From the IMG/VR virus record IMGVR_UViG_3300035208_007155, positions 1-64,000 of that record: DNA of 64,000 nucleotides. The stretch is one strand, 5' to 3'. The position numbers were made by a program, and so were the translations under genes. Below are positions 10,922 to 37,905 of this stretch, piece by piece. How positions within the stretch are numbered: the first letter of the stretch is position 1; each line of letters begins with the position of its first letter. The notes beneath the pieces are model-generated. The model did no database searches and had not been told where the DNA came from. It was given only the letters and a program-made list of their open reading frames with translations. The DNA comes from a virus. Its lineage: Duplodnaviria > Caudoviricetes.

Positions 10922-10953
10922 AAAAAGACAGCACCCAAATAAATTGGGTGCTG
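10922..10953 (-). terminator. Intrinsic terminator or attenuator hairpin
   Basis: Perfect 10-bp stem CAGCACCCAA/TTGGGTGCTG followed by TCTTTTT on the minus strand. Confidence 0.7.
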
Positions 10954-11048
10954 CTGCGTTGAGGATTGAAATGTTTGGCCAGTGTTATAAAGCCACTACT
11001 GGTTTGGCTGCTCATACGGCCTAAAGCCGTTCCCAGAGCGGGGATTAT

Positions 11049-12652: not shown

Positions 12653-13510
12653 TCATCCTTCCCAAAAATCCCGCCACTCACGTAATGCTACTGCCGACAC
12701 AGATTCTATAATTTTGCTGCGATCACATGCATATAATCCAGCACATGAAAAACAACCAACTTCCATTAAACGATATTGCCCTGATTTTGTCAAACATACA
12801 TCCACTACAAATACAGATTCAGGATTGTATTTAGATGCTATTAAATTGGCAAAATCAACCGCCTCTTGAGGATAAGTTGCATCTACATCAAAACGCTCAT
12901 TCTCCCGGTATTGACTCCCCGCTACCACCACACCATCCACAACAACAAACCTCCACTCAAATTGTATGTTGCGAGGCTCTGAAACCACCACTAATTCAAA
13001 TGGCTCAATCTGATTAAATCCAAAATATTCTACATCCTTCTCATAGCTTTCTTTGTAAACAGCCTTGCCAGTAAAAATTTTATCGCCACGATTCGGTCGC
13101 ATAAAGATCGTTCGATCACAACCTACATGTTCATATAAAAACTCTTTTTGACGCAAAAGCTCCGCATAAGGCAGCATTATGTAATTCTCTTGCAATAAAT
13201 ATTTGCCTAATGCCGCATAGTACGACGTACAATCATATTTTGGCACATCGTAATACACCCCAGGAACCCAATTCGCCTGCTTGCGAATGCTTTTTCCTAA
13301 TCCTAAAGAACCATAGAAAAGCACAGGAGTATTTTCTGGAAACAAATGAAGAAACTCCGTTTTCTCACACGGAATTTGCTTGATGATCTTATGCGGAAAA
13401 CCTTGTGCTTTCACGGCATCAATAAATGGTTGCACATCTTCTGGAAATGCATCGTCTTCAATCAAATAGTGCAGAGTGCTCTCTTCTGCAAATAGGGTCT
13501 TTTTATTCAT
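12653..13510 (-). CDS. ATP-grasp domain protein (R2K/DUF4343 type)
   Basis: FYGS; IFMRP..GDKIFTG; EWRFVVVDG.VV.GSQY; VFVVDV; LMEVGCFSCAGLY. Confidence 0.85.
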   Translation of the reverse strand: MNKKTLFAEESTLHYLIEDDAFPEDVQPFIDAVKAQGFPHKIIKQIPCEKTEFLHLFPENTPVLFYGSLGLGKSIRKQANWVPGVYYDVPKYDCTSYYAALGKYLLQENYIMLPYAELLRQKEFLYEHVGCDRTIFMRPNRGDKIFTGKAVYKESYEKDVEYFGFNQIEPFELVVVSEPRNIQFEWRFVVVDGVVVAGSQYRENERFDVDATYPQEAVDFANLIASKYNPESVFVVDVCLTKSGQYRLMEVGCFSCAGLYACDRSKIIESVSAVALREWRDFWEG

Positions 13511-13786
13511 TTAAAACGCCTCTTGAAACCAATCTTTTTCATAATCCATAACAAAATCACAATCTTCGTAAAATGCCACCATTCCACATTCTGCCCCACA
13601 ATCAGGACAATAGCCACCATAACTAGCACCCCTGTAATAATCCCAATATCCCAAATTACGACGCTTTGCCTCCGATTCACTAATATAAGTGCCATCGTGT
13701 AATCGGCAACGTCGATCAAAATTCACACACTCTTTAACCTCTTGTTCGTTAGGACAATAATAATTATACATTCTTGTGTTCCTCAT
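13511..13786 (-). CDS. Cys-rich zinc-ribbon protein ending DWFQEAF
   Basis: CPDCG motif; its stop codon abuts the ATP-grasp ATG. Confidence 0.65.
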   Translation of the reverse strand: MRNTRMYNYYCPNEQEVKECVNFDRRCRLHDGTYISESEAKRRNLGYWDYYRGASYGGYCPDCGAECGMVAFYEDCDFVMDYEKDWFQEAF

Positions 13787-14216
13787 TCATGTCAAAAAAT
13801 TCAATATGAATCCCATCATCAGACCGATTCACCTTCGGAACAATATTCAACTTTGAAAAAAATTTATTAAATTCATCTTCAATGCGATAGGCTTCGTCGG
13901 CTGGCAACCGCTCTGGTAATTTCATTTTAATCGATAAATTAGGTCTGCCTAGTCGCCATGTGCAACAATTACAAAATGCAACCTGAGGTGTATTGTGTTC
14001 AATTAAAGCAAATGCAGCTTTGGCATCAGCTTCACTGATTTCGTCAGATTCCTTAATGTTTTGGACAACACATCCCCAAACATGGCTTTCATTGCGAGGA
14101 TCACATACTTTGTATTCATCCTCTCCATCATATTGATTAATGCCTATCACCTTGAGCCTAAGACCATTATCCCAACGATAATATTTTCCAATGTTTTCAG
14201 GGTTAGCTTTATCCAT
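13764..14216 (-). CDS. Hypothetical protein
   Basis: TAATG-coupled ORF with GAGG RBS. Confidence 0.65.
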   Translation of the reverse strand: MDKANPENIGKYYRWDNGLRLKVIGINQYDGEDEYKVCDPRNESHVWGCVVQNIKESDEISEADAKAAFALIEHNTPQVAFCNCCTWRLGRPNLSIKMKLPERLPADEAYRIEDEFNKFFSKLNIVPKVNRSDDGIHIEFFDMNEEHKNV

Positions 14217-14536
14217 TAAAATGCCTCTTCAAACCAATCAATTTTTGGCTCTATCTCTTTGTCGTCTTTTTCTACATCTTTTGCTTCTTCAAGTGGTATG
14301 TATGGAGCATATACATATCCACAATCCATCAATGTGCGATGTAAATCATTTCCATCAATACATTGCCCCGTGGTTTCGTTTTTAATTCTCAAACTCAAGC
14401 CCAAATCATTAGGATAACTATCTAATACCTTTATCAAATGACATTGCAGTGCATTATACGCTTGCCTATAGACAGAATGAATGCCCGGTAATGAATACCA
14501 AACTCCCTTGTGATTTAAAACTTGTACTATAAACAT
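14216..14536 (-). CDS. Hypothetical protein ending DWFEEAF
   Basis: ORF in the operon. Confidence 0.65.
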   Translation of the reverse strand: MFIVQVLNHKGVWYSLPGIHSVYRQAYNALQCHLIKVLDSYPNDLGLSLRIKNETTGQCIDGNDLHRTLMDCGYVYAPYIPLEEAKDVEKDDKEIEPKIDWFEEAF

Positions 14537-14934
14537 TTTCTATTTACTTTCCCATATTTCTCTCTTATTCGATCTGGTACGGGATAACCCATTTCAATAT
14601 AGTGTCGCCAATGAGCATCTACCGCTCGTCCCACCATCTCCCAAAATTCTTTCTGATGATTTTTGTCGCAATCCTCACAAATATCAAAATTAAAATTTGG
14701 ATAACTTATGTCTATGTTCCATAACGGCTCACCTTTCTTGCCACATAAATCACATACACCAAGAGGCTTCCACCGTTCTTCCAACTTCTTTTTCAAGTCT
14801 GGCAAATCATTTGACAAAGGTATTTCTCCTCCTTGAATAAAACCCTCTTCTGGCTCGCTACGAAATATAAAACGGTAAAGACGAGGATGGTCAAGTAAAA
14901 GTAACTTAAAAAAATCAGTCCATTTTGGAGCCAT
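14527..14934 (-). CDS. Hypothetical zinc-binding protein
   Basis: CDLC...CEDC; TGATG coupling. Confidence 0.6.
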   Translation of the reverse strand: MAPKWTDFFKLLLLDHPRLYRFIFRSEPEEGFIQGGEIPLSNDLPDLKKKLEERWKPLGVCDLCGKKGEPLWNIDISYPNFNFDICEDCDKNHQKEFWEMVGRAVDAHWRHYIEMGYPVPDRIREKYGKVNRKCL

Positions 14935-15143
14935 CAAAAAGCCTCATTAAACCAGTCGGCGTCCGAGCCCATCGGGCAGAAATAAGACTCTGGGCCACTA
15001 CAAGCCAATCCGCAGTCTAATTCAGCATAATAGTGATACCCATGCTCCGTAGCATAAACCTTGATGATTGTCGCTTGCTCGCCCCACGCCGTCTCCATAA
15101 CCCTGTCGCCGGGCATAAATTTCTGTGGCTCTAAATCGATCAT
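14934..15143 (-). CDS. Small beta-barrel-like protein ending DWFNEAF
   Basis: KFMPGDRV...ATIIKV pattern (KOW/SH3-like). Confidence 0.6.
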   Translation of the reverse strand: MIDLEPQKFMPGDRVMETAWGEQATIIKVYATEHGYHYYAELDCGLACSGPESYFCPMGSDADWFNEAF

Positions 15144-15696: not shown

Positions 15697-15866
15697 ATTT
15701 CTCCTCTCTCTATCTCTTCTATTTCGTCTATCTCCATTTCACCTATCCAGCCAAAACCAGCAACAAGCCAGTCGCTACCGCCTACACCCAAATCAGGACG
15801 GTACTCGCCTACTCGCCATTGGCCATTGATCTTTATGCGGTAAAATCCAGGGGAACGAGTATTCAT
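15693..15866 (-). CDS. Small hypothetical protein (57 aa; not in the ORF track)
   Basis: MNTRSPGFYRIKINGQW...EIEEIERGEI*; ATGA overlaps at both ends. Confidence 0.6.
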   Translation of the reverse strand: MNTRSPGFYRIKINGQWRVGEYRPDLGVGGSDWLVAGFGWIGEMEIDEIEEIERGEI

Positions 15867-16525
15867 AATAATTGAAGCCTATTTAAAGCTTGTTCAATTT
15901 CGTTGCAAAAATCAATGGCTGGAATGGGTGTGTCATACACTTCTGATTTATATCCACCTATTTGTTTACATTTACACATCGTTTCCTGAATTATTTTTTG
16001 TTCTGCACCATATTTACAAATCCAGCTTTTTAATACTTTGATGTTTGGAGCCAGCGTGCAGTGTTCTTTTAATCTTAGTTCTGGCGTTCTACTTGTCCAC
16101 CCAATTTTCACCCTGCGGTCGCTTAAATCAGGCACAGTTAATGCAATATAAAAATAGCCATAACCCTTGGGAGGCGAAACAGTACCAGTAAAAATTTGAT
16201 ATGCCTCTTGATACATTATTTCTCCACACCGCATCATGTCGATTAAATGTGGTTGATTATTTTGCATATTAATAGCGTTTTGTATCGTATCGGCATTTAT
16301 TTTCACAGCCAATCCGGCAATTTCGCTTGCTTTGCCTTTCCTTTTCCCACGCACACCAGAATACATTCGTATTTTAGCTTCTACTTGCAACTTAGGAAGC
16401 ATATCCAATGCCAATAAAATACGCTTTGTTTTTTCTATTTGCTTTAGTTTTGTTATTTTACCCATGATTGTATTTTTCATTTGCCGATTTACATCGACAT
16501 TTCTTGCATCTTGTAGCATACCCAT
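15863..16525 (-). CDS. GIY-YIG / T5orf172-like nuclease domain protein
   Basis: GYFYIA...VKIGWT..PELRL...AEQKI; start position uncertain. Confidence 0.7.
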   Translation of the reverse strand: MGMLQDARNVDVNRQMKNTIMGKITKLKQIEKTKRILLALDMLPKLQVEAKIRMYSGVRGKRKGKASEIAGLAVKINADTIQNAINMQNNQPHLIDMMRCGEIMYQEAYQIFTGTVSPPKGYGYFYIALTVPDLSDRRVKIGWTSRTPELRLKEHCTLAPNIKVLKSWICKYGAEQKIIQETMCKCKQIGGYKSEVYDTPIPAIDFCNEIEQALNRLQLL

Positions 16526-17972
16526 CTGACTTTAATTTGTCAATTCCAAATTCCTCAAATAACTTTACTTCTCGGCATTGATTACATTGTTTTTTACCCT
16601 CGACAGCGTATGGATTTACTTTCTTTTTCTTGGGCTTGCTGCCAGCGATGTGGCCACCTTCCTTTTCACAGATATAGCGACCATTGCGAGCTATGTTCTT
16701 ATCATAAGTTAGGCGAAGGGCGGTGTGGGTGATCTGGCAATAGGGACAGAAAACATCGATGGTGTCAGCAATTATGTTTTTGTGATAATGTTTTTTTGAT
16801 TTTTTATTATTTAACTCTTTGTGATTTATACAAATGCCCAATGACTGTCTGAGTTTTTCCACAAATAATTCAATATGTTTTGGATTATACACTGCCCCGA
16901 AAAGATCAACTTCGCACCAAACATCAAATAACACACCGGATTTTTCAGCAATGATCTGTGCGGCTTTGTGCTTGGCTACAATCACTTCATCATCAAGCCA
17001 CGCCGCTGGTTTGACTTCTATCCACTTAATACTGTCGTCTATATATTGGATTTCCAAATCTACTAAATAATTTGCTTCAAAATTCTTTACGGGATTATAA
17101 TAAGATATTTTTATTTTTTCTTTGTAATAAGTTTTTACATTTAAATCTTCGTCCAATTTAAGAAATGCCTTCTTTTCATAAGAGGAGCTAAAAAATATCT
17201 TTCCTGCCTTCGGAGATTCGTGCCACCCACGAACATGGTGTGTTTTTGGATTAAATCCCTGTTTGTAGAGTCTAATGGTTGCCTCGGAAAGCTTGCGTCG
17301 ATGTTCTGGAGAAAAACCACCAGTTTCAGCAAGCATTTTTTTGCGACCATCAGATATGTTCTGGCAATGCTCTTCTGTAAATGTTTTGCCACAATGCGAT
17401 TGAGACATCTGTTGTTTTGTTTCTTCGCTGTGGTGTTTCCCAAGCATTCCAGTTGTACATTGATTTTCTAACAAATTGCGTGTTGCCCGTGCAATTCCTT
17501 CAGGATTATTTTTCATATATTGACTTAGTTTTTCTTTGAATTCATCACTTCTTTTTATGCCCTTAAGAGCAAATTTTATTTTTTCTTTTTGTTCTTCTGT
17601 TATTATTTTTCCCCTCTGAGCACAACTTTTACACATTTGAATATACGGCTCTATCATTTCGCCATAATAGCAACTCTTTTTCATCAATCGTCCATTATCG
17701 CCAACATGCTCTACACAAGGGCAATACACCATTATTTCTTCGTTGGTTTGTCGGTTTTCTCCAATCCTATTCATTGGGTTATTGTAGACCATATCACAGG
17801 CCCTACAAACAAACTCTCTTCCACCATGTTTTAGTATATTTTTCCTGGCTGGGCCTTTGCTTATTGGCTTGCCTGCTTTTATATGATTTGGGCAATCACA
17901 AAGATCATCAACATTGATGGAGTCTACGTCTCTTAGGTTTTTGTACAACTCTTTAAACTGTTCTATATTCAT
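16458..17972 (-). CDS. Free-standing homing endonuclease (NUMOD3 repeats, TnsA-like PD-(D/E)XK domain, zinc fingers)
   Basis: GKHHSEETKQQMS repeats; SSYEKKAF..LD; YLVDLEI...WIEVKP; CxxC motifs. Confidence 0.75.
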   Translation of the reverse strand: MNIEQFKELYKNLRDVDSINVDDLCDCPNHIKAGKPISKGPARKNILKHGGREFVCRACDMVYNNPMNRIGENRQTNEEIMVYCPCVEHVGDNGRLMKKSCYYGEMIEPYIQMCKSCAQRGKIITEEQKEKIKFALKGIKRSDEFKEKLSQYMKNNPEGIARATRNLLENQCTTGMLGKHHSEETKQQMSQSHCGKTFTEEHCQNISDGRKKMLAETGGFSPEHRRKLSEATIRLYKQGFNPKTHHVRGWHESPKAGKIFFSSSYEKKAFLKLDEDLNVKTYYKEKIKISYYNPVKNFEANYLVDLEIQYIDDSIKWIEVKPAAWLDDEVIVAKHKAAQIIAEKSGVLFDVWCEVDLFGAVYNPKHIELFVEKLRQSLGICINHKELNNKKSKKHYHKNIIADTIDVFCPYCQITHTALRLTYDKNIARNGRYICEKEGGHIAGSKPKKKKVNPYAVEGKKQCNQCREVKLFEEFGIDKLKSDGYATRCKKCRCKSANEKYNHG

Positions 17973-18090
17973 AATATGCTCCTTTAATTCTTATTGTATC
18001 ATATTACTTATATAGTGTCAAGCCTAAAATTTTGCACTTTTTTTGATGTTTTTTTTGCGAATTCATTAAAAATGGTTTATGTACAAAAAG

Positions 18091-18116
18091 AAAGACCCGC
18101 ATTTCTGCGGGTCTTT
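18091..18116 (-). terminator. Terminator after the major capsid gene
   Basis: AAAGACCCGCA-TTTC-TGCGGGTCTTT stem-loop. Confidence 0.8.
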
Positions 18117-18142: not shown

Positions 18143-19606
18143 TTAGATCACGAAATTCGCAATGCTCATGCGGGCATAGAATTTAGCCCCTTCCCTTAGC
18201 AATTTTTTTCCGTACCTTGTTAAAATTCCCTTACGTGGGCAGAAGCTCTCTGGATCGAGAACAACTGGGGTCTGAGTAAGAGGAACGTATGGGCAGTAGA
18301 AGTAACCGCTGTCCATGTACGAGTCACCCTTGTAACCCATCAACATTTGGTTGGTTGGGAACAACGGGTCTTTGTAAATTCTCCAACGAGCATTTACTGT
18401 ACCGACATATTGAATGCCGAGAGACGAAGTAAATGTTTCGCTAGGAGCGGGAGCGAAGCCTGCGGTAGCGGTTTCGAAGATGGAGGCGACTTCTGGGGAA
18501 GTCACGATCCAGTTGCAACCACCACGCAATGTCTTCCTGTGGACGACGTTGCTTACTTCAACGACTTTAACATAGAGGGCTTCATACTTCTCTTTGATGG
18601 TATCACCAAGAGCAGTGGCGAAGTCCCAGCTTGTCACTGTACCAGCGTTGGTACGCAAGTCGTTCAAGATTTCACGGTCGATTTCCAGGTTGATTTCCTG
18701 GGCAAGAACGGCGGTCAACTCAGCCTCGGCGTCGAGGTTGTGCTGGCTGCGGAGGTCTTGCTGAGCTTCGTAGCTCCAAACGGCTTTCAACTTACGGGTC
18801 TTAGCGGCAATTTCTTCCGACTCGATGACCAAGTTGATTTCAGGCAAGTCCTGGTTGCATTCCATGTTGTACTCATAGTTGAGCACCATATGGCAAGCAC
18901 CAGTAAAGTTGGTCCAATTAATGACAACTTCACCTGTGGTCACATTGAGTGTACCAGCTTGGAGAGCGGCTGTATTAACGGTGTAACCAGTTGCATTGGG
19001 GATCAACACAGCGGTAAGACCAGTGCTACCAGCGGTTGAAGTCAATGTATAAACAGCGACTGCACCGGCGTACAAAACGCCTGTTAAAGTTCCGCCCAAA
19101 ACGGGTGTATGCTCCAACGGGGTGAAAGTAGCTGTGAAGGCAGCGGCACCAGCAGCGGTGCTAACAGTGCTGCTAACTTCACCTTCAACAAACTGGCTGC
19201 TGTAATAGGTGTAGAGGTTAGCATCACCAGAGGCCAACTGTTGCAACGAATTTACGTCGTCACCTGGGAAGCCTGCGTTATTATCCGCACCACGAACAGC
19301 ACCCTTGTTGGAGCTATAACGGAAGCGGAGGTAATATACGAGTCCGGTTGGGCCAAGGAGGGGTTGTACTGAGACAATCTTATTGGCGATCAACTGGGGA
19401 TAAATACGTCGGACCAAGGGAATACTAATTCTCTTGAATTGTGCAACGTCTGAGGTGTCGGTGGACACTTCATTGATGAGTCTTTGGTTTTCGAGCAGAA
19501 CGGCGGTGCAGGATCGAACATACGGGTCGGCAATCCCTTCCATCATTCCAAGCTCGGACCAAAGGCTTTCTAACTGAGCAGCTTCGTTCAAAAATCTATC
19601 GTTCAT
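18143..19606 (-). CDS. Major capsid protein (T4 gp23-like)
   Basis: AVLLENQ; LVRRIYPQLIA; SVQPL.GPTGL; AKTRKLKA; EINLEIDRE; YCPYVPL; GILTRYG. Confidence 0.97.
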   Translation of the reverse strand: MNDRFLNEAAQLESLWSELGMMEGIADPYVRSCTAVLLENQRLINEVSTDTSDVAQFKRISIPLVRRIYPQLIANKIVSVQPLLGPTGLVYYLRFRYSSNKGAVRGADNNAGFPGDDVNSLQQLASGDANLYTYYSSQFVEGEVSSTVSTAAGAAAFTATFTPLEHTPVLGGTLTGVLYAGAVAVYTLTSTAGSTGLTAVLIPNATGYTVNTAALQAGTLNVTTGEVVINWTNFTGACHMVLNYEYNMECNQDLPEINLVIESEEIAAKTRKLKAVWSYEAQQDLRSQHNLDAEAELTAVLAQEINLEIDREILNDLRTNAGTVTSWDFATALGDTIKEKYEALYVKVVEVSNVVHRKTLRGGCNWIVTSPEVASIFETATAGFAPAPSETFTSSLGIQYVGTVNARWRIYKDPLFPTNQMLMGYKGDSYMDSGYFYCPYVPLTQTPVVLDPESFCPRKGILTRYGKKLLREGAKFYARMSIANFVI

Positions 19607-19619
19607 TGTTTTTTAACCT

Positions 19620-20543
19620 TTATTTTTTGCTTGATTGTAAACCAGCGAGGACTCTCATTTGACGGAGATCATCACCAGTAATGGCTTCTGATAATACTGA
19701 AGCCGGTTTGTCACCTGGAGGAACTTCTTCGTTATGTTCCGCAATAACTTTTGTTTCCTTGGTAACTTTGTCGCCTCTCCCCGTTACATTCTTAGCCGTT
19801 TCCACTCTTGCATTTCTTTCTTCGGTAACTAATTTACCACTAGTTTTTGCAACGCTCTCATTGAGGGACCGAACGCTCTCATTGAGGTGCTTATTCTCTG
19901 TGGACAATCTCATATTACGAGCCTCAAGAATACGCTGTTTGCTACGCATATCTTCCAGTGTCTTGAGAACTTCCTCAAGTTTGCTGCTGGTAGCCAGTGT
20001 ATAATCTTCTTGGCTGATGTAATCAGAAAGGATACTTACAACCTTATCCATTGCAACTTTATGTTCAGCAACGGTCGGGTCATTGAGCATTTCACGTCGG
20101 GCTTGCTCGTAAATTTCCTTACCCTTGACGGACAAGAACTCATCGATTTTGTCAATCATATATTCACGCATTTCGTTGAGTTTCTTATCATATTCTTCAT
20201 AGATTTCGACTTCCAATTTTTCATTCTTGGAGCGTTCTGCCAGGAGCATTTGATAAGCTTCTTCATAACCTTCATCCATAGCTTGTTCAAATTCTGCCTG
20301 TTGTGTTTCCAATCTGCCTCGGAGGTCTTGGATAATGGTATAAGCTTCTGAATAGCCAGTCTCGGCAGTTGTTTCAGCCGCCTTAAGTTGATTGGCCAAA
20401 TCAGCATATGCTTCTTCCAAGTTCTTGTTATACTCTGCATCCAATTCCTTTTTGGATTCTTCGAGCATAGCTTCGACGGCTGGTACAAGTTTACTCGCCT
20501 GATCTTCAGGCAATAATTTAGTAAGTGCTTCTAAGACTTTCAT
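19620..20543 (-). CDS. Prohead core/scaffold protein (gp22-like)
   Basis: Acidic coiled coil between the protease and MCP genes; C-terminal MRVLAGL. Confidence 0.75.
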   Translation of the reverse strand: MKVLEALTKLLPEDQASKLVPAVEAMLEESKKELDAEYNKNLEEAYADLANQLKAAETTAETGYSEAYTIIQDLRGRLETQQAEFEQAMDEGYEEAYQMLLAERSKNEKLEVEIYEEYDKKLNEMREYMIDKIDEFLSVKGKEIYEQARREMLNDPTVAEHKVAMDKVVSILSDYISQEDYTLATSSKLEEVLKTLEDMRSKQRILEARNMRLSTENKHLNESVRSLNESVAKTSGKLVTEERNARVETAKNVTGRGDKVTKETKVIAEHNEEVPPGDKPASVLSEAITGDDLRQMRVLAGLQSSKK

Positions 20544-21256
20544 GAGCTTAACCTCGCTTTATATTGGTCTGTTGTTTCTTTAATTATTCCGCTTAGGCAA
20601 GCAAGAATAAGATCATCACTTATCCTATGTATGCCGCAAGCTTCATTTTTTGGTGGATTATCATAACTTTGCACGAACAAAGTCGATTCTTCCTTACCAA
20701 CTACCTTCTCTTGGAATGCCGCTGTGGTGCTTGGATCAGCTACTGCATCAAAAGTGATTAAACGATAACTTTCACCAATCACAAGAATTCCGTTTTCATT
20801 TACTTTTCCGTTTCCTACGCCACGACTGCTAATTCCGATTCGTACACCGCAATTGATGAGTGATTTAAGCAATTTGCCCATTGGGGTATCAAGGATAACT
20901 CCCTCACCCATCAAAGTATTTCCTTCCCACCAAAGTTTCTTGACCATATGTGAACAATTTGAGAAGTGAATAATTGAATCAGTGGGATGGTCACATTCTC
21001 CGATGAGTCCACCCACATCAATTACTTCACTCAAACGTTGCACATTTGCCTCTAAAACTTGGCGTGGGTACATTCGTTTATTTTTATTGACAGCTTCGGC
21101 TTCCTGAAATTTACCTCTGAATTTCACGAGTTTTATTCCGCCATATTCGGTGGACTCATGTAAATCCATTTCGTTGAGAATGCCATAACCACCGTCACAT
21201 ATTAGGACGTTGTTATAGCTACTCCCAGGAATGCCATGCTCTAATAGTAAATTCAT
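20540..21256 (-). CDS. Prohead protease (T4 gp21-like)
   Basis: NKNKRMYP; GECDHP; DTPMG; IGISSRGVG; DAVADPS. Confidence 0.95.
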   Translation of the reverse strand: MNLLLEHGIPGSSYNNVLICDGGYGILNEMDLHESTEYGGIKLVKFRGKFQEAEAVNKNKRMYPRQVLEANVQRLSEVIDVGGLIGECDHPTDSIIHFSNCSHMVKKLWWEGNTLMGEGVILDTPMGKLLKSLINCGVRIGISSRGVGNGKVNENGILVIGESYRLITFDAVADPSTTAAFQEKVVGKEESTLFVQSYDNPPKNEACGIHRISDDLILACLSGIIKETTDQYKARLSS

Positions 21257-24573: not shown

Positions 24574-24792
24574 TTATAACCTAGTCATACAACCATCAAA
24601 GTTCTCTAATTCTTTGAACCTATCAATATCGTCAACAATAACAAGTTCTGGGGTTGATTTACTCCAAACTGTTATGCCTAATTTTGGCTTTTCTTCCGAA
24701 CAATTTACACATGTTTTTGTGTGCAATAATTCCATTCTTTCTAATGGAATTATTGCACCACATTTAATACACTTACTCTTCACTATAATCAC
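24574..24792 (-). CDS. DksA/TraR-type C4 zinc-finger protein
   Basis: CIKCGAIIPLERMELL...CVNC. Confidence 0.75.
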   Translation of the reverse strand: MIIVKSKCIKCGAIIPLERMELLHTKTCVNCSEEKPKLGITVWSKSTPELVIVDDIDRFKELENFDGCMTRL

Positions 24793-27283
24793 GTTCTTCA
24801 GTGTCTTGTTCTAAGTCGTAATTTTGAATTTCAAGATCATATTTCTTGATTTCCTCAGGCGTAACTTCAGCGAGAGCCATTCCGCCATTGCCAGATGGTT
24901 TCGGATTATTTTGTACGGGGGCTCCTGCGGCTCCTTCTTCTGGCGGCGGCGGTGCTCCACCAGGGGGTTGAGTAAGATCGGGACTTGGGCCACCTGCTTC
25001 TGTGCCCATTTGTTGTTCATCATTACTTGGCAATCCCACGCCGAGAAGCTGCGGATTTTGTGCAAGAACCTGGAGTTTGAAGTCTTCCAATTTCTGAATT
25101 TTCAAACGAGCCTGCATTCCTGCCGCTTCTTCTTCGGTATATTTAAGAATTCCTGTAAGAATATCGAAGTCAGCCATAATCATCGATCCCTTGAGATTAC
25201 TAGCCCAACCAATACGATTGTTCATCAACTCTTGTTTGCTAAGTTCTCTATACTCCGAAGGCGGTGTCCAAATGACTTGCAAATCCTCAAAGTCTTCTTT
25301 GGGAACTCCACGCAGTTTAAGGTGTGTTGTTATAATTTGTACAACAGCTTTAGAAAAATGAGCCTGTAATCTCTCGATAGTGCGTGCAAAACGCACATTT
25401 TGGGAAGAAAGGCTAGTCTTTGTGGCATTAGCATCTTCGGTGGAAAAGTAATTCAACGGGAACTTTAAAGCTGTAAACAATTTGTTGCGGAAATATAATG
25501 CATCATCAATTTCGCCAAGGTTTTGAGCACCCTGTAAAGTGTCAATACGAGTGTTGGTAGCATTTGGACGAATAGGCAACCAGTAATCCTCATCAATGGC
25601 TGGTGGATGCCAACGTTCTTCAACACTAGAAGCACCAGGACCGCCACCTCGGGATGGGGCTACTTTCTTTTTGCGGAACTGATCCTTGATGCGTTCCATA
25701 AAAGCTTCGGCCCTTGCGGGTGACAAAGTGCCCACGTCGATATAAAACACACGTCTTTCAGGGGCTCTTGATAATCGATAAACTACCATAGAGTCTTCCA
25801 TGAGTCGTAATTGATGTGCAGGCCCTCTGGCTGCTTCGATCAATGAAACACCATAGGGATAAAAAGTACGACGATCATCGCCAATTTTTGTATGCACTAT
25901 TTGATCGGCAGTAAACCTTACTGCTGTTGCTTGCATTAAATCTGCTTCAGTTGCTTGCGTTACAGGCACTCTAGTAAGGCTTTGATAATCTGGGCCTTCA
26001 TTAGATTGTTGAAACTCAACCAATTTACCCTTGGTAGTTTCTATGCGATACATGCTATCTGGCGGCAATGGCAAAAGTGCCACAACACCTTTTTTGGGGT
26101 TTTCTGCATCGATAACAACTTCAAAGAAGTGATCGCCTTGAATACATGTATTTTTTACATAGTTCCAACCAACTGATGGATCATCGAAATTTAGCATTTC
26201 AGGGTGAAAACACAGAAATTCTGCTTCTTCTTTGGCGAATTCATTAGCACAACGGATTTCAAAGATATGTCCATTTTCACCACGTTGGCAATTGTGATAA
26301 ACAATAGATTCGCCGCAAAAGTTCTTGTGTTTTTCTACCGATAGATCATAAACATCTATTTCTTTCCATTCTTCAACACCAATGACTCTTCTGCAATTTT
26401 CTTTCTTGCCCAATTGTCTAAGTTCTTTAAGACTAAATCCTTCTTTTTTCAAAATGCTGCGAAGGGTGTCTCGGTCATGGTGGGTAACTTTAGCCGTTTC
26501 CTCAATTGTGGCTCCCGCACACAACATACGCACAATATCTGTTGCTGGAGTTTTTAGAGATTTGCCAGTACGCCATTCGTCAACGAATTGTCTTTCTGTT
26601 TTCCAGCCATCAACCAAAGAAAATATGCGTGGGTGTTGATTGGTTTTTAATTTGTCATTAAAATAAAGATTTGGTTGCTCTCTGTAAAAGGGCATCAATT
26701 CGTCTCCGAATTGAAGTAGCCCTGTCATTGTCCAATCTCCGTTATGCAATAAAACTCGATGTTCAGGCGTGGCAATAAAATTGGTGCCATCATCTAATTT
26801 GATGCGAATAGTACGTGCAGTTTTAACTTTTCTAGCATCATAAGCCCAGCCGATAGTATAGTCTTTTTTGTCTCCATCCCAACAATAAACAAGGAATCTT
26901 TCACCTGACTTATTTTCAGCAAGCCATTTAATGGTTTGTGGTCCAAAAAATACTGTATTCACAATCATATGGCCCGCCAAACAAGTTTCATCGGCGTAGG
27001 TGTCCATGACTGCTTCTATTTCAGATACTGAACGAAGTCGTTCATATTCCTTGTAACGAGAAATACGATTTGTTACACTGGACAAATCCACAAAATCGTT
27101 AGTGTCTCTGAGTTTTATTAAACCTCTGCCGCCGCCCCAAAAACTACCATCTTGTCGAATGTCGGGGATAGCATCAGGTTGCGTGACACCCGCACCCGAG
27201 ATGTCCTTCTTGGCTCGTGTTTCGATAGGATCATCTCGAAATGCATAATTCCAAATCTTAAATAAGTCTGACCATTTTGGCAT
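24773..27283 (-). CDS. Portal protein (T4 gp20-like) containing an intein
   Basis: QLRLMEDSMVVYRLSRAPERRVFYIDVG; EDYWLP; NLGEIDD; RFARTIERLQ. Confidence 0.95.
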   Translation of the reverse strand: MPKWSDLFKIWNYAFRDDPIETRAKKDISGAGVTQPDAIPDIRQDGSFWGGGRGLIKLRDTNDFVDLSSVTNRISRYKEYERLRSVSEIEAVMDTYADETCLAGHMIVNTVFFGPQTIKWLAENKSGERFLVYCWDGDKKDYTIGWAYDARKVKTARTIRIKLDDGTNFIATPEHRVLLHNGDWTMTGLLQFGDELMPFYREQPNLYFNDKLKTNQHPRIFSLVDGWKTERQFVDEWRTGKSLKTPATDIVRMLCAGATIEETAKVTHHDRDTLRSILKKEGFSLKELRQLGKKENCRRVIGVEEWKEIDVYDLSVEKHKNFCGESIVYHNCQRGENGHIFEIRCANEFAKEEAEFLCFHPEMLNFDDPSVGWNYVKNTCIQGDHFFEVVIDAENPKKGVVALLPLPPDSMYRIETTKGKLVEFQQSNEGPDYQSLTRVPVTQATEADLMQATAVRFTADQIVHTKIGDDRRTFYPYGVSLIEAARGPAHQLRLMEDSMVVYRLSRAPERRVFYIDVGTLSPARAEAFMERIKDQFRKKKVAPSRGGGPGASSVEERWHPPAIDEDYWLPIRPNATNTRIDTLQGAQNLGEIDDALYFRNKLFTALKFPLNYFSTEDANATKTSLSSQNVRFARTIERLQAHFSKAVVQIITTHLKLRGVPKEDFEDLQVIWTPPSEYRELSKQELMNNRIGWASNLKGSMIMADFDILTGILKYTEEEAAGMQARLKIQKLEDFKLQVLAQNPQLLGVGLPSNDEQQMGTEAGGPSPDLTQPPGGAPPPPEEGAAGAPVQNNPKPSGNGGMALAEVTPEEIKKYDLEIQNYDLEQDTEERDYSEE
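26291..26983 (-). mobile_element. Intein (231 aa) in the portal gene
   Basis: ADET|CLAG...ATPEHRV...VYDLSVEKHKNF...VYHN|C. Confidence 0.9.
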
Positions 27284-37761: not shown

Positions 37762-37905
37762 ATGGATTATTGGTTTGAAGAACGAGAAGAACCTTATTGT
37801 TTTATTAAACCTTCTCAGTTGGCTAATTGGCGTTGGGAAGAAGTAGAATGTGATGAAGAAGAGGATGAATTAGACGAAGATTTCATCAATTGGTTTGAAG
37901 ATTAG
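37762..37905 (+). CDS. Very acidic 47-aa early protein (not in the ORF track)
   Basis: MDYWFEEREEPYCFIKPSQLANWRWEEVECDEEEDELDEDFINWFED*; has its own promoter and RBS. Confidence 0.7.
   Translation: MDYWFEEREEPYCFIKPSQLANWRWEEVECDEEEDELDEDFINWFED

Follow-up and report, generated by a model that had tools for sequence, protein, structure and literature searches.

What keeps one heptapeptide at the ends of three small phage genes that otherwise look unrelated? The genes lie in a stretch of 64,000 nucleotides (the window; positions 1 to 64,000 of IMG/VR record IMGVR_UViG_3300035208_007155, Caudoviricetes). As recorded with correct coordinates in the initial annotation, DWFNEAF*, DWFEEAF*, and DWFQEAF* terminate the minus-strand open reading frames 14934-15143, 14216-14536, and 13511-13786, and the order of the ORF coordinates confirms that the tagged genes are interleaved with untagged ones. 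The relevant features, read along the minus strand, are:

14934..15143, minus strand: 69-aa acidic orphan protein ending in DWFNEAF*; tail codons 14937-14957, TGA overlapping the next ATG by one base
14527..14934, minus strand: untagged 135/136-aa protein whose start, (M)APKWTDFFKL, appears to copy the conserved portal N-terminus
14216..14536, minus strand: 106-aa acidic orphan protein ending in DWFEEAF*; tail codons 14219-14239
about 14285-14335, minus strand: apparent copy of the capsid signature in the 106-aa protein (residues 68-84), followed by an acidic linker and then the tail
13764..14216, minus strand: untagged 150-aa protein; its LPADEAYRIE resembles the conserved portal segment LPPDSMYRIE
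13511..13786, minus strand: Cys-rich acidic orphan protein of 91 aa (86 aa from the second ATG) ending in DWFQEAF*; tail codons 13514-13534, stop abutting the ATG of the ATP-grasp gene
12653..13510, minus strand: R2K-clade ATP-grasp ligase, apparently intact (Pfam and PHROG matches)

The tail is not expected by chance. By composition, a given C-terminus reads DWFxEAF with a probability of 7.5e-9. A pattern search of the window with GAYTGGTTYNNNGARGCNTTY returns three matches against 0.21 expected, and no shuffled sequence reaches three. Neither all six frames of the 6.25-Mb mixed assembly nor about 1 Mb of low-GC phage-like contigs contain DWFxEAF C-termini beyond these three. The sole further DWFxEAF in the assembly, on contig C68, is coincidental, lying within the core motif of an ATP-grasp enzyme (Ddl-like) from the high-GC organism. 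Among 71 DWFxEAF-type matches in IMG/VR, a stop codon follows directly in one, which lacks an ORF behind it; an internal DWF[VIT]EAFGDGG family found there belongs to polyvalent proteins with a zincin-like domain and is likewise coincidental. On these searches, DWFxEAF is not a general phage C-terminal tag. Sequencing runs yield no natural variants of the window, and no RNA run with a match is listed. Two DNA runs, a landfill metagenome and a groundwater metagenome, are identical to it and may have been where it came from, and the remaining matches are pieces of about 23-40 nt with 80-90% identity, in numbers as by chance.

The carriers themselves offer few clues. Homolog searches with the three tagged proteins return self matches only, and neither tblastn of the 91-aa protein against phage records nor blastn of the region gives a match; the tail statistics thus concern three copies in one phage, all on orphan proteins. 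The three carriers have a net charge of −6 to −9, with −4 to −6 in the last 20 residues. The x residue is polar in every tail (Asn, Glu, or Gln), and a Lys or Ser lies 1-3 residues upstream of each, along with Asp/Glu. The annotation described the proteins as having no other similarity, which holds for BLASTP, where the tail alone is seen, but overlooks a DCG tripeptide common to all three, 20-29 residues ahead of the tail (54 of 20,000 shuffles, P 0.003). Its description of the 91-aa protein as a CxxC zinc ribbon is borne out only insofar as the protein is Cys-rich; the zf-tcix match is sub-threshold (E 0.036).

The DCG tripeptide raises the prospect that the tails are a remnant of paralogy. 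The carriers would be diverged copies of one ancestor, with DCG...DWFxEAF as the core of a small C-terminal fold, and the last helix would pack on its own body and not be an exposed tag. The similar position of DCG in all three proteins fits this idea, as do the Cys-rich segments ahead of the tail in two of them, and the near-equal spacing of the copies (718 and 705 bp) could reflect a two-gene unit duplicated in tandem. What separates DCG from the tail nevertheless varies in both length (17-26 aa) and character; the 106-aa protein has a low-complexity acidic linker there, unlikely to form a compact fold, and contains one Cys, whereas the other two carriers have three or four. Furthermore, comparison of the untagged 136-aa and 150-aa proteins reveals no similarity, so duplication of a two-gene unit is not demonstrable. 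The single-sequence AlphaFold model of the 106-aa protein (pLDDT 45.6) is too poor to place the tail as free or packed, and its ESM Atlas look-alikes all score below 0.9. We regard a packed remnant of this kind as improbable. The carriers are probably very diverged relatives or sharers of a module, DCG-(17-26 aa)-DWFxEAF.

The DNA reveals how narrowly conservation is confined. The 21-nt core is 81-90% identical among the three copies, whereas the flanks show 31-43% identity, i.e. the random level, and identity falls to background right past the last codon. These sharp edges imply a core that was kept as its flanks drifted to background. Beyond the x codon, the differences are synonymous only (GAC/GAT, GCT/GCA/GCG, and TGA/TAA), as the annotation stated. 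All five variable bases occupy positions that leave D-W-F-x-E-A-F-stop unchanged (P 0.006, or 0.026 without the x codon), a modest statistic resting on five sites. The Ala wobble base is different in each copy, and both neighboring bases are invariant. Should all three gene ends have a common ancestor, their reading frame would simply be inherited and would not count as independent evidence. The annotation took the pattern as selection on the peptide; the variable bases do respect the codons, but a second constraint, at the DNA level, was left unweighed.

This second constraint is a ribosome-binding site. The Glu codon is GAG in all three copies, though this is the minority codon at 26% (P 0.018), and the choice puts GAGG 7-8 nt ahead of the next ATG (spacers of 7, 7, and 8 nt). 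Each tagged gene's stop codon shares one base with the downstream start (TGATG, TAATG) or directly adjoins it (TAA ATG). Such spacing and stop/start overlap indicate that the element would serve as ribosome-binding site and translational coupler for the downstream gene; a Shine-Dalgarno site at 5-9 nt and an upstream stop overlapping or abutting the downstream start, the marks of translational coupling, are present at each junction. From sequence, this role is largely established for the 136-aa, 150-aa, and ATP-grasp genes. The junctions resemble other coupled junctions in the GAGG 7-8 nt ahead of ATG, in the TGATG/TAATG arrangement, and in a codon choice bent toward the Shine-Dalgarno sequence. 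They differ in that ordinary coupling needs neither 21 conserved nucleotides nor the same heptapeptide three times.

Could the nucleic acid account for everything? The 21-24 nt might be purely an RNA or DNA element, such as a ribosome-binding site, coupler, local operator, or cassette junction, with the peptide incidental. The spacing of GAGG, the overlapping stops and starts, and the fixed minority codon all agree with this explanation. The regular distances between copies resemble unit boundaries, and the surrounding island is a variable, lineage-specific insertion adjoining homing-endonuclease-like genes. Although the GAGGC part of the conservation is explicable by a ribosome-binding site alone, the Shine-Dalgarno site accounts for just 4-5 of the 16 invariant bases of the core and not for GAYTGGTTT or TTT. 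The peptide-neutral placement of every variable base and the drop to background directly after the last codon also speak against an incidental peptide. RNA structure analysis detects neither a conserved nor a competing structure, leaving a structured RNA operator unsupported. Finally, across about 1 Mb of phage-like contigs, no other gene is preceded by either half of the element, implying that it is not a general leader. We consider an explanation by RNA or DNA alone unlikely, if the most serious of the rivals.

The reading that we favor, with somewhat less than even confidence, is a gene end in dual use, at once a docking tail for one partner and a translational coupler. At the RNA level, GAGG in the 21-nt end would drive translation initiation of the next gene. 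At the protein level, D-W-F-x-E-A-F-COOH would be a conserved acidic-aromatic C-terminal heptapeptide hanging off acidic, poorly conserved sequence. In helical form it would make two turns, placing W, F, A, and F on one side, opposite D, x, and E. This common handle may bring three different small acidic proteins to one partner, which would present a hydrophobic groove, probably rimmed with basic residues that accept the acidic side chains and the free carboxylate. The annotation had offered a shared docking address as one of its two suggestions. It remains the best fit for the peptide, given the codons, the sharp edges, the acidic carriers, and the amphipathic face.

Several known C-termini illustrate how such a tail could work. 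T7 gp2.5 and gp4, bacterial SSB (…DDDIPF), and the clamp-binding C-termini of T4 are acidic tails ending in an aromatic residue, and the terminal Phe side chain and free carboxylate dock on the partner. The phage tails share with them an acidic stretch ending in Phe that is common to several unrelated proteins. They differ in sequence (DWFxEAF), and their carriers are orphans with no DNA-replication signature; no link to a clamp, SSB, or polymerase was found. A search of the assembly for the gp45 clamp family gives no matches, though the control genomes are equally silent.

Outside the phage, long ORFs ending in the heptapeptide encode FtsA, in at least three unrelated lineages (Thermodesulfobacteriota, a Proteobacteria MAG, and Rokuibacteriota) with no known link to the phage. 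There the heptapeptide forms the tip of the C-terminal amphipathic helix, suggesting that this sequence can work as an amphipathic terminal helix. FtsA has a hydrophilic linker ahead of the terminal helix (PMC4252000), and a linker likewise precedes the identical heptapeptide end in the 106-aa protein. Unlike the FtsA helix, which comprises about 15 residues with basic lipid-binding residues, the phage tails are seven residues long and follow acidic ones. FtsA-type membrane targeting relies on about 10-15 residues with basic flanks; here seven are conserved, and the last 20 residues have a net charge of −4 to −6. The assembly, with its co-binned organism, contains no further protein ending in DWFxEAF, and mimicry of that organism's FtsA is therefore rejected.

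Any candidate partner has to be weighed against the setting of the genes, for which the following features matter:

24773..27283, minus strand: portal protein with the N-terminus MPKWSDLFK (phrog_213, 6e-77)
18143..19606, minus strand: gp23-type major capsid protein (phrog_138, 1e-82; alignment to T4-type structures)
18091..18116, minus strand: terminator-like hairpin after the major capsid gene, parting the head operon from the island
17993..18021, minus strand: sigma-70-type promoter-like site, TTGACA-17-TACAAT with TG, at the head of the accessory operon (consensus match only)
10928..10954, minus strand: terminator-like hairpin that probably closes the accessory operon

By these annotations, the setting in this giant T4-related phage is a lineage-specific island that closely follows the head genes and has a host-type promoter (a consensus match). 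The whole island, including the ATP-grasp gene, is absent from 80 related phages compared at loci within 9 kb of the capsid gene; those loci contain no such ORFs and neither a DWFxEAF tail nor an equivalent shared tail.

Parts of the island appear to imitate the adjacent head genes. The 106-aa protein copies the capsid signature MDxGYxYxPYxPL: BLASTP against the phage's own capsid protein gives E 3e-5, no Smith-Waterman score from 300 shuffles reaches the observed one, the HMM score is 10.4 bits, the profile scan gives z 5.9, and Pfam Gp23 matches at E 0.0016. The start of the 136-aa protein aligns with the portal N-terminus (Smith-Waterman 62 against 38.2 ± 5.2 for shuffles, 0 of 300; profile scan z 4.3, 1 of 200). 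The likeness of LPADEAYRIE in the 150-aa protein to the portal is suggestive only (z 2.6, 4 of 200). Both the portal N-terminus and the LPPDSMYRIE segment are conserved in relatives. The profile scan finds no significant capsid or portal segment in the 69-aa and 91-aa proteins; the resemblance of LDCG..GPESYFCPMG in the former to capsid MDSG..DPESFCPRKG is not significant, nor is the capsid similarity of the latter. At least two island proteins thus seem to carry copies of conserved capsid or portal segments. We note that a significant head-protein fragment is present on one of the three tagged proteins and that the clearest portal copy is on an untagged one. For the docking tail, we give the machinery of head assembly, or a host factor recognizing head proteins, a minor but appreciable chance of being the partner.

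A stronger version of the connection to the head is that the tail is itself a head-assembly motif. W-F-x-E|A-F would imitate a site of the T4-type prohead protease or a capsid-targeting peptide, and the carriers would be recruited to, or compete at, the prohead core or protease. The internal proteins of T4 (IPI, IPII, and IPIII) are otherwise unrelated and share just a short targeting peptide (PMC3012670, PMC9026906), and gp21-type proteases cut after Glu in L/I-X-E, often ahead of Ala, with C-terminal propeptides also in existence (PMC9026906). The phage encodes a Peptidase_S77 protease (20540-21256), the island adjoins the head genes and holds the two segment copies, and the start of the capsid protein, ...FLNEA..., is nearly unchanged in at least 74 of 78 relatives. 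The match to FLNEA, however, amounts to N-E-A plus two conservative positions and is not significant.

The analogy with T4 holds in outline: in both cases unrelated small phage proteins have one short terminal peptide in common, and, like the internal-protein genes, the tagged genes are variable accessory genes of a T4-type phage. The details diverge. The T4 signal is an N-terminal peptide of about 10 residues on basic, packaged proteins and is removed at its L/I-X-E end. The tail described here is C-terminal, sits on acidic carriers, and has Phe, not Leu or Ile, at P3, and cleavage would take off two residues only. Moreover, the scaffold and protease proteins are without the tail, and the operon, with its host-type promoter-like site, is set apart from the late head genes by a terminator-like hairpin. 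We judge a head-assembly motif of this type very unlikely.

The remaining candidate is the gene next to the last tagged ORF, which the annotation correctly assigned to the R2K ATP-grasp enzymes. It matches Pfam R2K_3 (5e-18; 66.3 bits, cut-off 26.3) and R2K_2 (1.5e-16; 61 bits, cut-off 26.2) as well as phrog_7313 (8e-50), and it keeps the family-invariant residues P139, K144, E185, D237, E250, and Y260. The model is confident (pLDDT 95.4), and the nearest solved folds identified by Foldseek are Ddl, LysX/ArgX, PsnB, and RimK, with E values of about 1e-11 for Ddl, LysX, and RimK and TM scores of 0.54-0.63 for LysX/ArgX and RimK.

These features make it conceivable that the R2K ligase recognizes DWFxEAF-COOH and modifies its three bearers covalently; for example, it might extend the terminal carboxylate with amino acids or cross-link Lys/Ser and Asp/Glu side chains close by. 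An enzyme that is apparently active by sequence is coupled to the last tagged gene, its model looks like LysX/ArgX, RimK, and PsnB, a graspetide ligase, and the Lys or Ser next to each tail could take part. The targets of R2K enzymes, predicted protein or peptide ligases, "remain elusive" (PMC4431377). With 3,438 related clusters, though, the family is large, whereas a single phage has the tail; moreover, the genes coupled to two of the three tagged ones are unrelated to the ligase gene. A profile scan of IMG/VR for ATP-grasp loci gives two loci and no further ones. The tagging or ligation system suggested in the annotation finds no support in nine distinct neighborhoods of ATP-grasp relatives (38-55% identity), which have no DWFxEAF-like tail, no other tail common to the neighbors, and no conserved neighbor at all; the island is also missing from the 80 related phages. 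The score of 0.00 for the predicted complex of the ATP-grasp enzyme with the 91-aa protein speaks neither for nor against the idea, the fold of the latter being uncertain.

Known ATP-grasp systems provide partial parallels. As with LysW and LysX (ArgX) or S6 and RimK, a small acidic Cys-containing protein is encoded beside an ATP-grasp ligase of similar fold. LysW and S6 end in Glu, the residue that is modified. All three phage proteins end in Phe, unlike these known substrates; the ligase is of the R2K clade, outside the LysX/RimK family, biosynthetic partner genes are lacking, and the nine neighborhoods hold nothing carrier-like. Graspetide (microviridin/plesiocin) loci also place several small genes with one short motif beside an ATP-grasp gene; PsnB is among the nearest folds, and the phage motif is acidic-aromatic with Lys or Ser close by. 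Graspetide precursors have a common leader and repeated core motifs and co-occur with the ligase across genomes. The carriers, in contrast, are 69-106 aa long with apparently their own domains and share DCG and the tail only, and relatives of the ligase have no such neighbors. A covalent tag for this ligase therefore seems a poor prospect, and the neighboring ATP-grasp enzyme is an equally doubtful partner for the docking tail. Protease or degradation machinery is about as doubtful; the larger share of our expectation falls on something else.

[quoted passage not shown] The present example is small yet unusually clean, with three orphans that have diverged to background except for a 7-residue end. 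The same end also appears to carry the ribosome-binding site of the next gene, and would thus show a coding sequence held by two constraints at once. If the ATP-grasp enzyme did modify the tails, they would be the first phage R2K substrates, for a family whose targets have been called elusive since 2015 (PMC4431377), and at least one of the modified proteins would display a capsid signature. The reader of the tail, if found, and especially if it is the R2K ligase, could help to reveal what a large uncharacterized enzyme family does.

Three minus-strand genes of the window end in the heptapeptide DWFxEAF, immediately followed by a stop codon, and are interleaved with two untagged genes as follows.

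14934-15143, minus strand: tagged 69-aa protein, ending DWFNEAF
14527-14934, minus strand: untagged 136-aa protein
14216-14536, minus strand: tagged 106-aa protein, ending DWFEEAF
13764-14216, minus strand: untagged 150-aa protein
13511-13786, minus strand: tagged 91-aa protein (86 aa from the second ATG), ending DWFQEAF
12653-13510: ATP-grasp gene, directly after the last tagged gene

An independent gene call on the same DNA in another assembly reproduces the gene order and the one-base overlaps and abutment. The tail is genuine and unique, with sharp boundaries. The window contains exactly three matches to a degenerate DNA pattern encoding the heptapeptide (0.21 expected), and no other DWFxEAF C-terminus occurs in any of the six frames of the 6.25-Mb assembly containing the window, nor in a separate search of its ~1 Mb of low-GC contigs. 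These searches confirm, with a small correction, the three-ORF shared tail described in the initial annotation. From amino-acid composition, the chance of DWFxEAF at a given C-terminus is 7.5e-9.

The assembly is a mixed bin of ~5.3 Mb at ~70% GC and ~1 Mb in 15 contigs at 37-45% GC (~39%), C200, C137, C226, C242 and C44 among them; the window makes up the first 64 kb of a low-GC contig 97 kb in length. Encoded there is a T4-type head module of large terminase, portal, Peptidase_S77 prohead protease and gp23-type major capsid protein. For the capsid protein, IMG/VR contains 333 relatives at 75-85% identity, the contigs carrying them reaching 340 kb; in GenBank the nearest record is an uncultured phage of 595 kb (72% identity). 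Judged by these features, the source is an uncultured giant T4-related phage. Several of the low-GC contigs may belong to one such phage, since the 132-aa protein of the island described below is matched by two paralogs on contig C200 (340 kb; 320548-321343).

By consensus matches only, the capsid gene is followed by a terminator-like hairpin, a near-consensus sigma-70-type promoter and a co-directional gene run extending to the next strong hairpin (10928-10954). The run comprises a NUMOD3/TnsA-like gene, a T5orf172-like gene, 57-aa and 180-aa ORFs, the five small genes, the ATP-grasp gene and further small genes. These consensus matches place the cluster in a putative separate accessory operon with a host-type promoter. 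The first gene, homing-endonuclease-like and encoding 504 aa (16458-17972, minus strand), lies directly after the capsid gene, and in 34 of 80 related phages a homolog at 39-60% identity is found at that site. All 80 loci have the protease and scaffold genes. Every gene from the T5orf172-like ORF through an 85-aa ORF is absent from all 80, indicating that the cluster is a lineage-specific island.

The tagged proteins had been described as unrelated. This holds in that BLASTP between them detects the tail alone, and all three are orphans, with no homologs in a 5.8-billion-protein collection. It is qualified by a DCG tripeptide that all three share 20-29 residues upstream of the tail, a pattern that only 54 of 20,000 composition-preserving shuffles match. 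In the 106-aa protein, DCG begins a 15-17-residue copy of the gp23-type capsid signature (MDCGYVYAPYIPL, compared with MDSGYFYCPYVPL in the phage's own capsid protein and MDAGIYYAPYVAL in T4-type structures). The copy is supported by BLASTP (E 3e-5), Smith-Waterman alignment (0/300 shuffles), a family HMM (10.4 bits vs at most 0.5 bits for shuffles), a profile scan (z 5.9) and alignment to solved structures. The untagged 136-aa protein opens with (M)APKWTDFFKL...YRFIFRSEPEE, the conserved N-terminus of the portal protein (24773-27283, minus strand; own sequence MPKWSDLFKIWNYAFRDDPIE, relatives' consensus MPxWSDFFKLFxY..DPL), and the first 27 nt are identical to the portal gene at 21 positions. 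A resemblance between LPADEAYRIE of the 150-aa protein and the portal's highly conserved LPPDSMYRIE is suggestive only (z 2.6, 4/200). The profile scan reveals no significant head-protein similarity in the 69-aa and 91-aa proteins. On these alignments, the island does contain copies of head-protein segments, and these do not track the tail. The T5orf172-like 220-aa protein (15863-16525, minus strand) scores higher than expected against a scaffold-family profile near residue 111 (z 4.7, 0/200), which may reflect coiled-coil composition rather than a copied segment.

The three copies of the 21-nt core are 81-90% identical in DNA, and identity is 31-38% over the 39 nt upstream and 33-43% over the 30 nt downstream. 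Within the 24-nt gene end, five positions vary: the Asp wobble base, bases 1 and 3 of the x codon, the Ala wobble base (three different bases across the copies) and the middle base of the stop codon. The peptide is unchanged at all five (placement P 0.006, or 0.026 without the x codon), and these statistics are modest but real evidence of a constraint that follows codons. The main rival explanation is an element acting solely as RNA. In its favor, all three copies use GAG for Glu, a codon that accounts for only 26% of Glu codons on the contig (P 0.018), and the last G of this codon completes a GAGG located 7, 7 and 8 nt upstream of the next gene's ATG. The tail thus overlaps a well-placed Shine-Dalgarno site with stop/start coupling, and Glu codon choice is bent towards that site. 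Such variation as remains respects the peptide. Taken together, codon-position placement and GAG fixation make constraint visible at both the peptide and the RNA level. The junction RNAs have no common or unusually stable structure, and neither half of the element lies upstream of any other gene in ~1 Mb of phage-like contigs, which speaks against the element being a structured operator or a leader of general use.

A second alternative, raised in the initial annotation, is a peptide-tagging or ligation system served by the ATP-grasp enzyme. The enzyme is a clear R2K-clade member from a large family (3,438 clusters at E 1e-3 or better) and retains the family-invariant residues. Its model has a confident, classical three-domain ligase fold, with Ddl, LysX/ArgX, PsnB and RimK as the nearest solved structures. 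Published predictions for such enzymes are that they attach peptides to proteins in conflicts between phage and host; their targets are not known (PMC4431377, PMC7824862). Nine distinct neighborhoods of relatives with 38-55% identity (L005, L077, L078, L130, L131, L132, L213, L215 and L216) were compared; none contains a DWFxEAF-like ending, a tail shared between neighbors or a conserved neighbor. The adjacency of tail and enzyme is therefore without comparative support, and tagging by the enzyme is possible but unsupported.

Some of these loci have features of their own. On a metagenomic phage contig (L213:4560-4967, plus strand; also L214), a 135-aa protein directly upstream of an R2K relative (42% identity) matches positions 50-171 of the 198-position profile of Peptidase_S77, the T4 gp21 prohead-protease family; it is a shortened head-protein homolog adjoining the same enzyme family. 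An uncultured 462-kb phage (LR756500.1; L005:2912-3764, plus strand) encodes three tandem 93-95-aa proteins ending KSKDFL, EGKDFI and EAKDFLS. These are true paralogs, not unrelated proteins, and lie ~2.2 kb upstream of its R2K ATP-grasp gene, with a PARP-like gene between. The only other DWFxEAF in the assembly, DWFVEAFVDGREF, falls in the conserved core of a Ddl-like ATP-grasp of the high-GC organism (contig C68, 925-1971, minus strand) and was dismissed as coincidence.

The peptide's matches in IMG/VR are nearly all internal: a stop codon follows only 1 of 71, and no ORF leads up to that stop. Across JGI metagenomes and a set with one genome for each prokaryotic species, the long ORFs ending in DWFxEAF are FtsA or carry its conserved C-terminal sequence, five being confirmed by Pfam in at least three unrelated lineages. 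Set apart from these are a fragment of a transposase and three frames 43-61 codons long. FtsA proteins (L081, L084, L095, L101, L103, L105, L111, L120, L230, L232 and L241) end exactly in DWF(S/K/D)EAF in at least three lineages: a Thermodesulfobacteriota MAG, a low-GC 'Proteobacteria' MAG and Rokuibacteriota (68% GC). There the heptapeptide forms the extreme end of the amphipathic C-terminal helix that targets FtsA to the membrane; a hydrophilic linker precedes this helix, which has a further role in regulating self-interaction (PMC4252000). These endings show that DWFxEAF is able to serve as a terminal amphipathic helix. In the phage, however, the tails are short and lie in acidic surroundings, no host link is known, and a six-frame search of the whole assembly finds no protein of the co-binned organism with this ending; we therefore treat FtsA as an analogy. 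Two ORFs outside the cluster loosely resemble the tail: a very acidic 47-aa ORF ending DEDFINWFED (37762-37905, plus strand) and an 82-aa ORF ending KKEIDWFKMQLAKGRN (contig C242, 95700-95948, plus strand).

The other proposal of the initial annotation, a docking address for one partner, gains from codon variation that respects the peptide, and docking itself is plausible but unproven. The heptapeptide would form an exposed amphipathic, acidic-aromatic handle by which three different small acidic proteins could dock on one partner. The setting points to head assembly, or to a host factor recognizing head proteins, as that partner: the island adjoins the head genes, it holds copies of capsid and portal segments, and the tail has a Phi-x-E-A pattern like that of gp21-type cleavage sites (PMC9026906) and of the near-invariant FLNEA of the capsid protein. 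None of the three is significant on its own. At least 74 of 78 relatives keep the N-terminal FLNEA (residues 5-10) of the capsid protein (18146-19606, minus strand) unchanged. Both this motif and a second site, L-L-E-G (residues 21-24), fit the T4 gp21 L/I-X-E cleavage pattern; FLNEA also bears a loose likeness to WFNEAF of the tail. A short address peptide shared by phage accessory proteins would be of a known kind, here doubling as a translational coupler.
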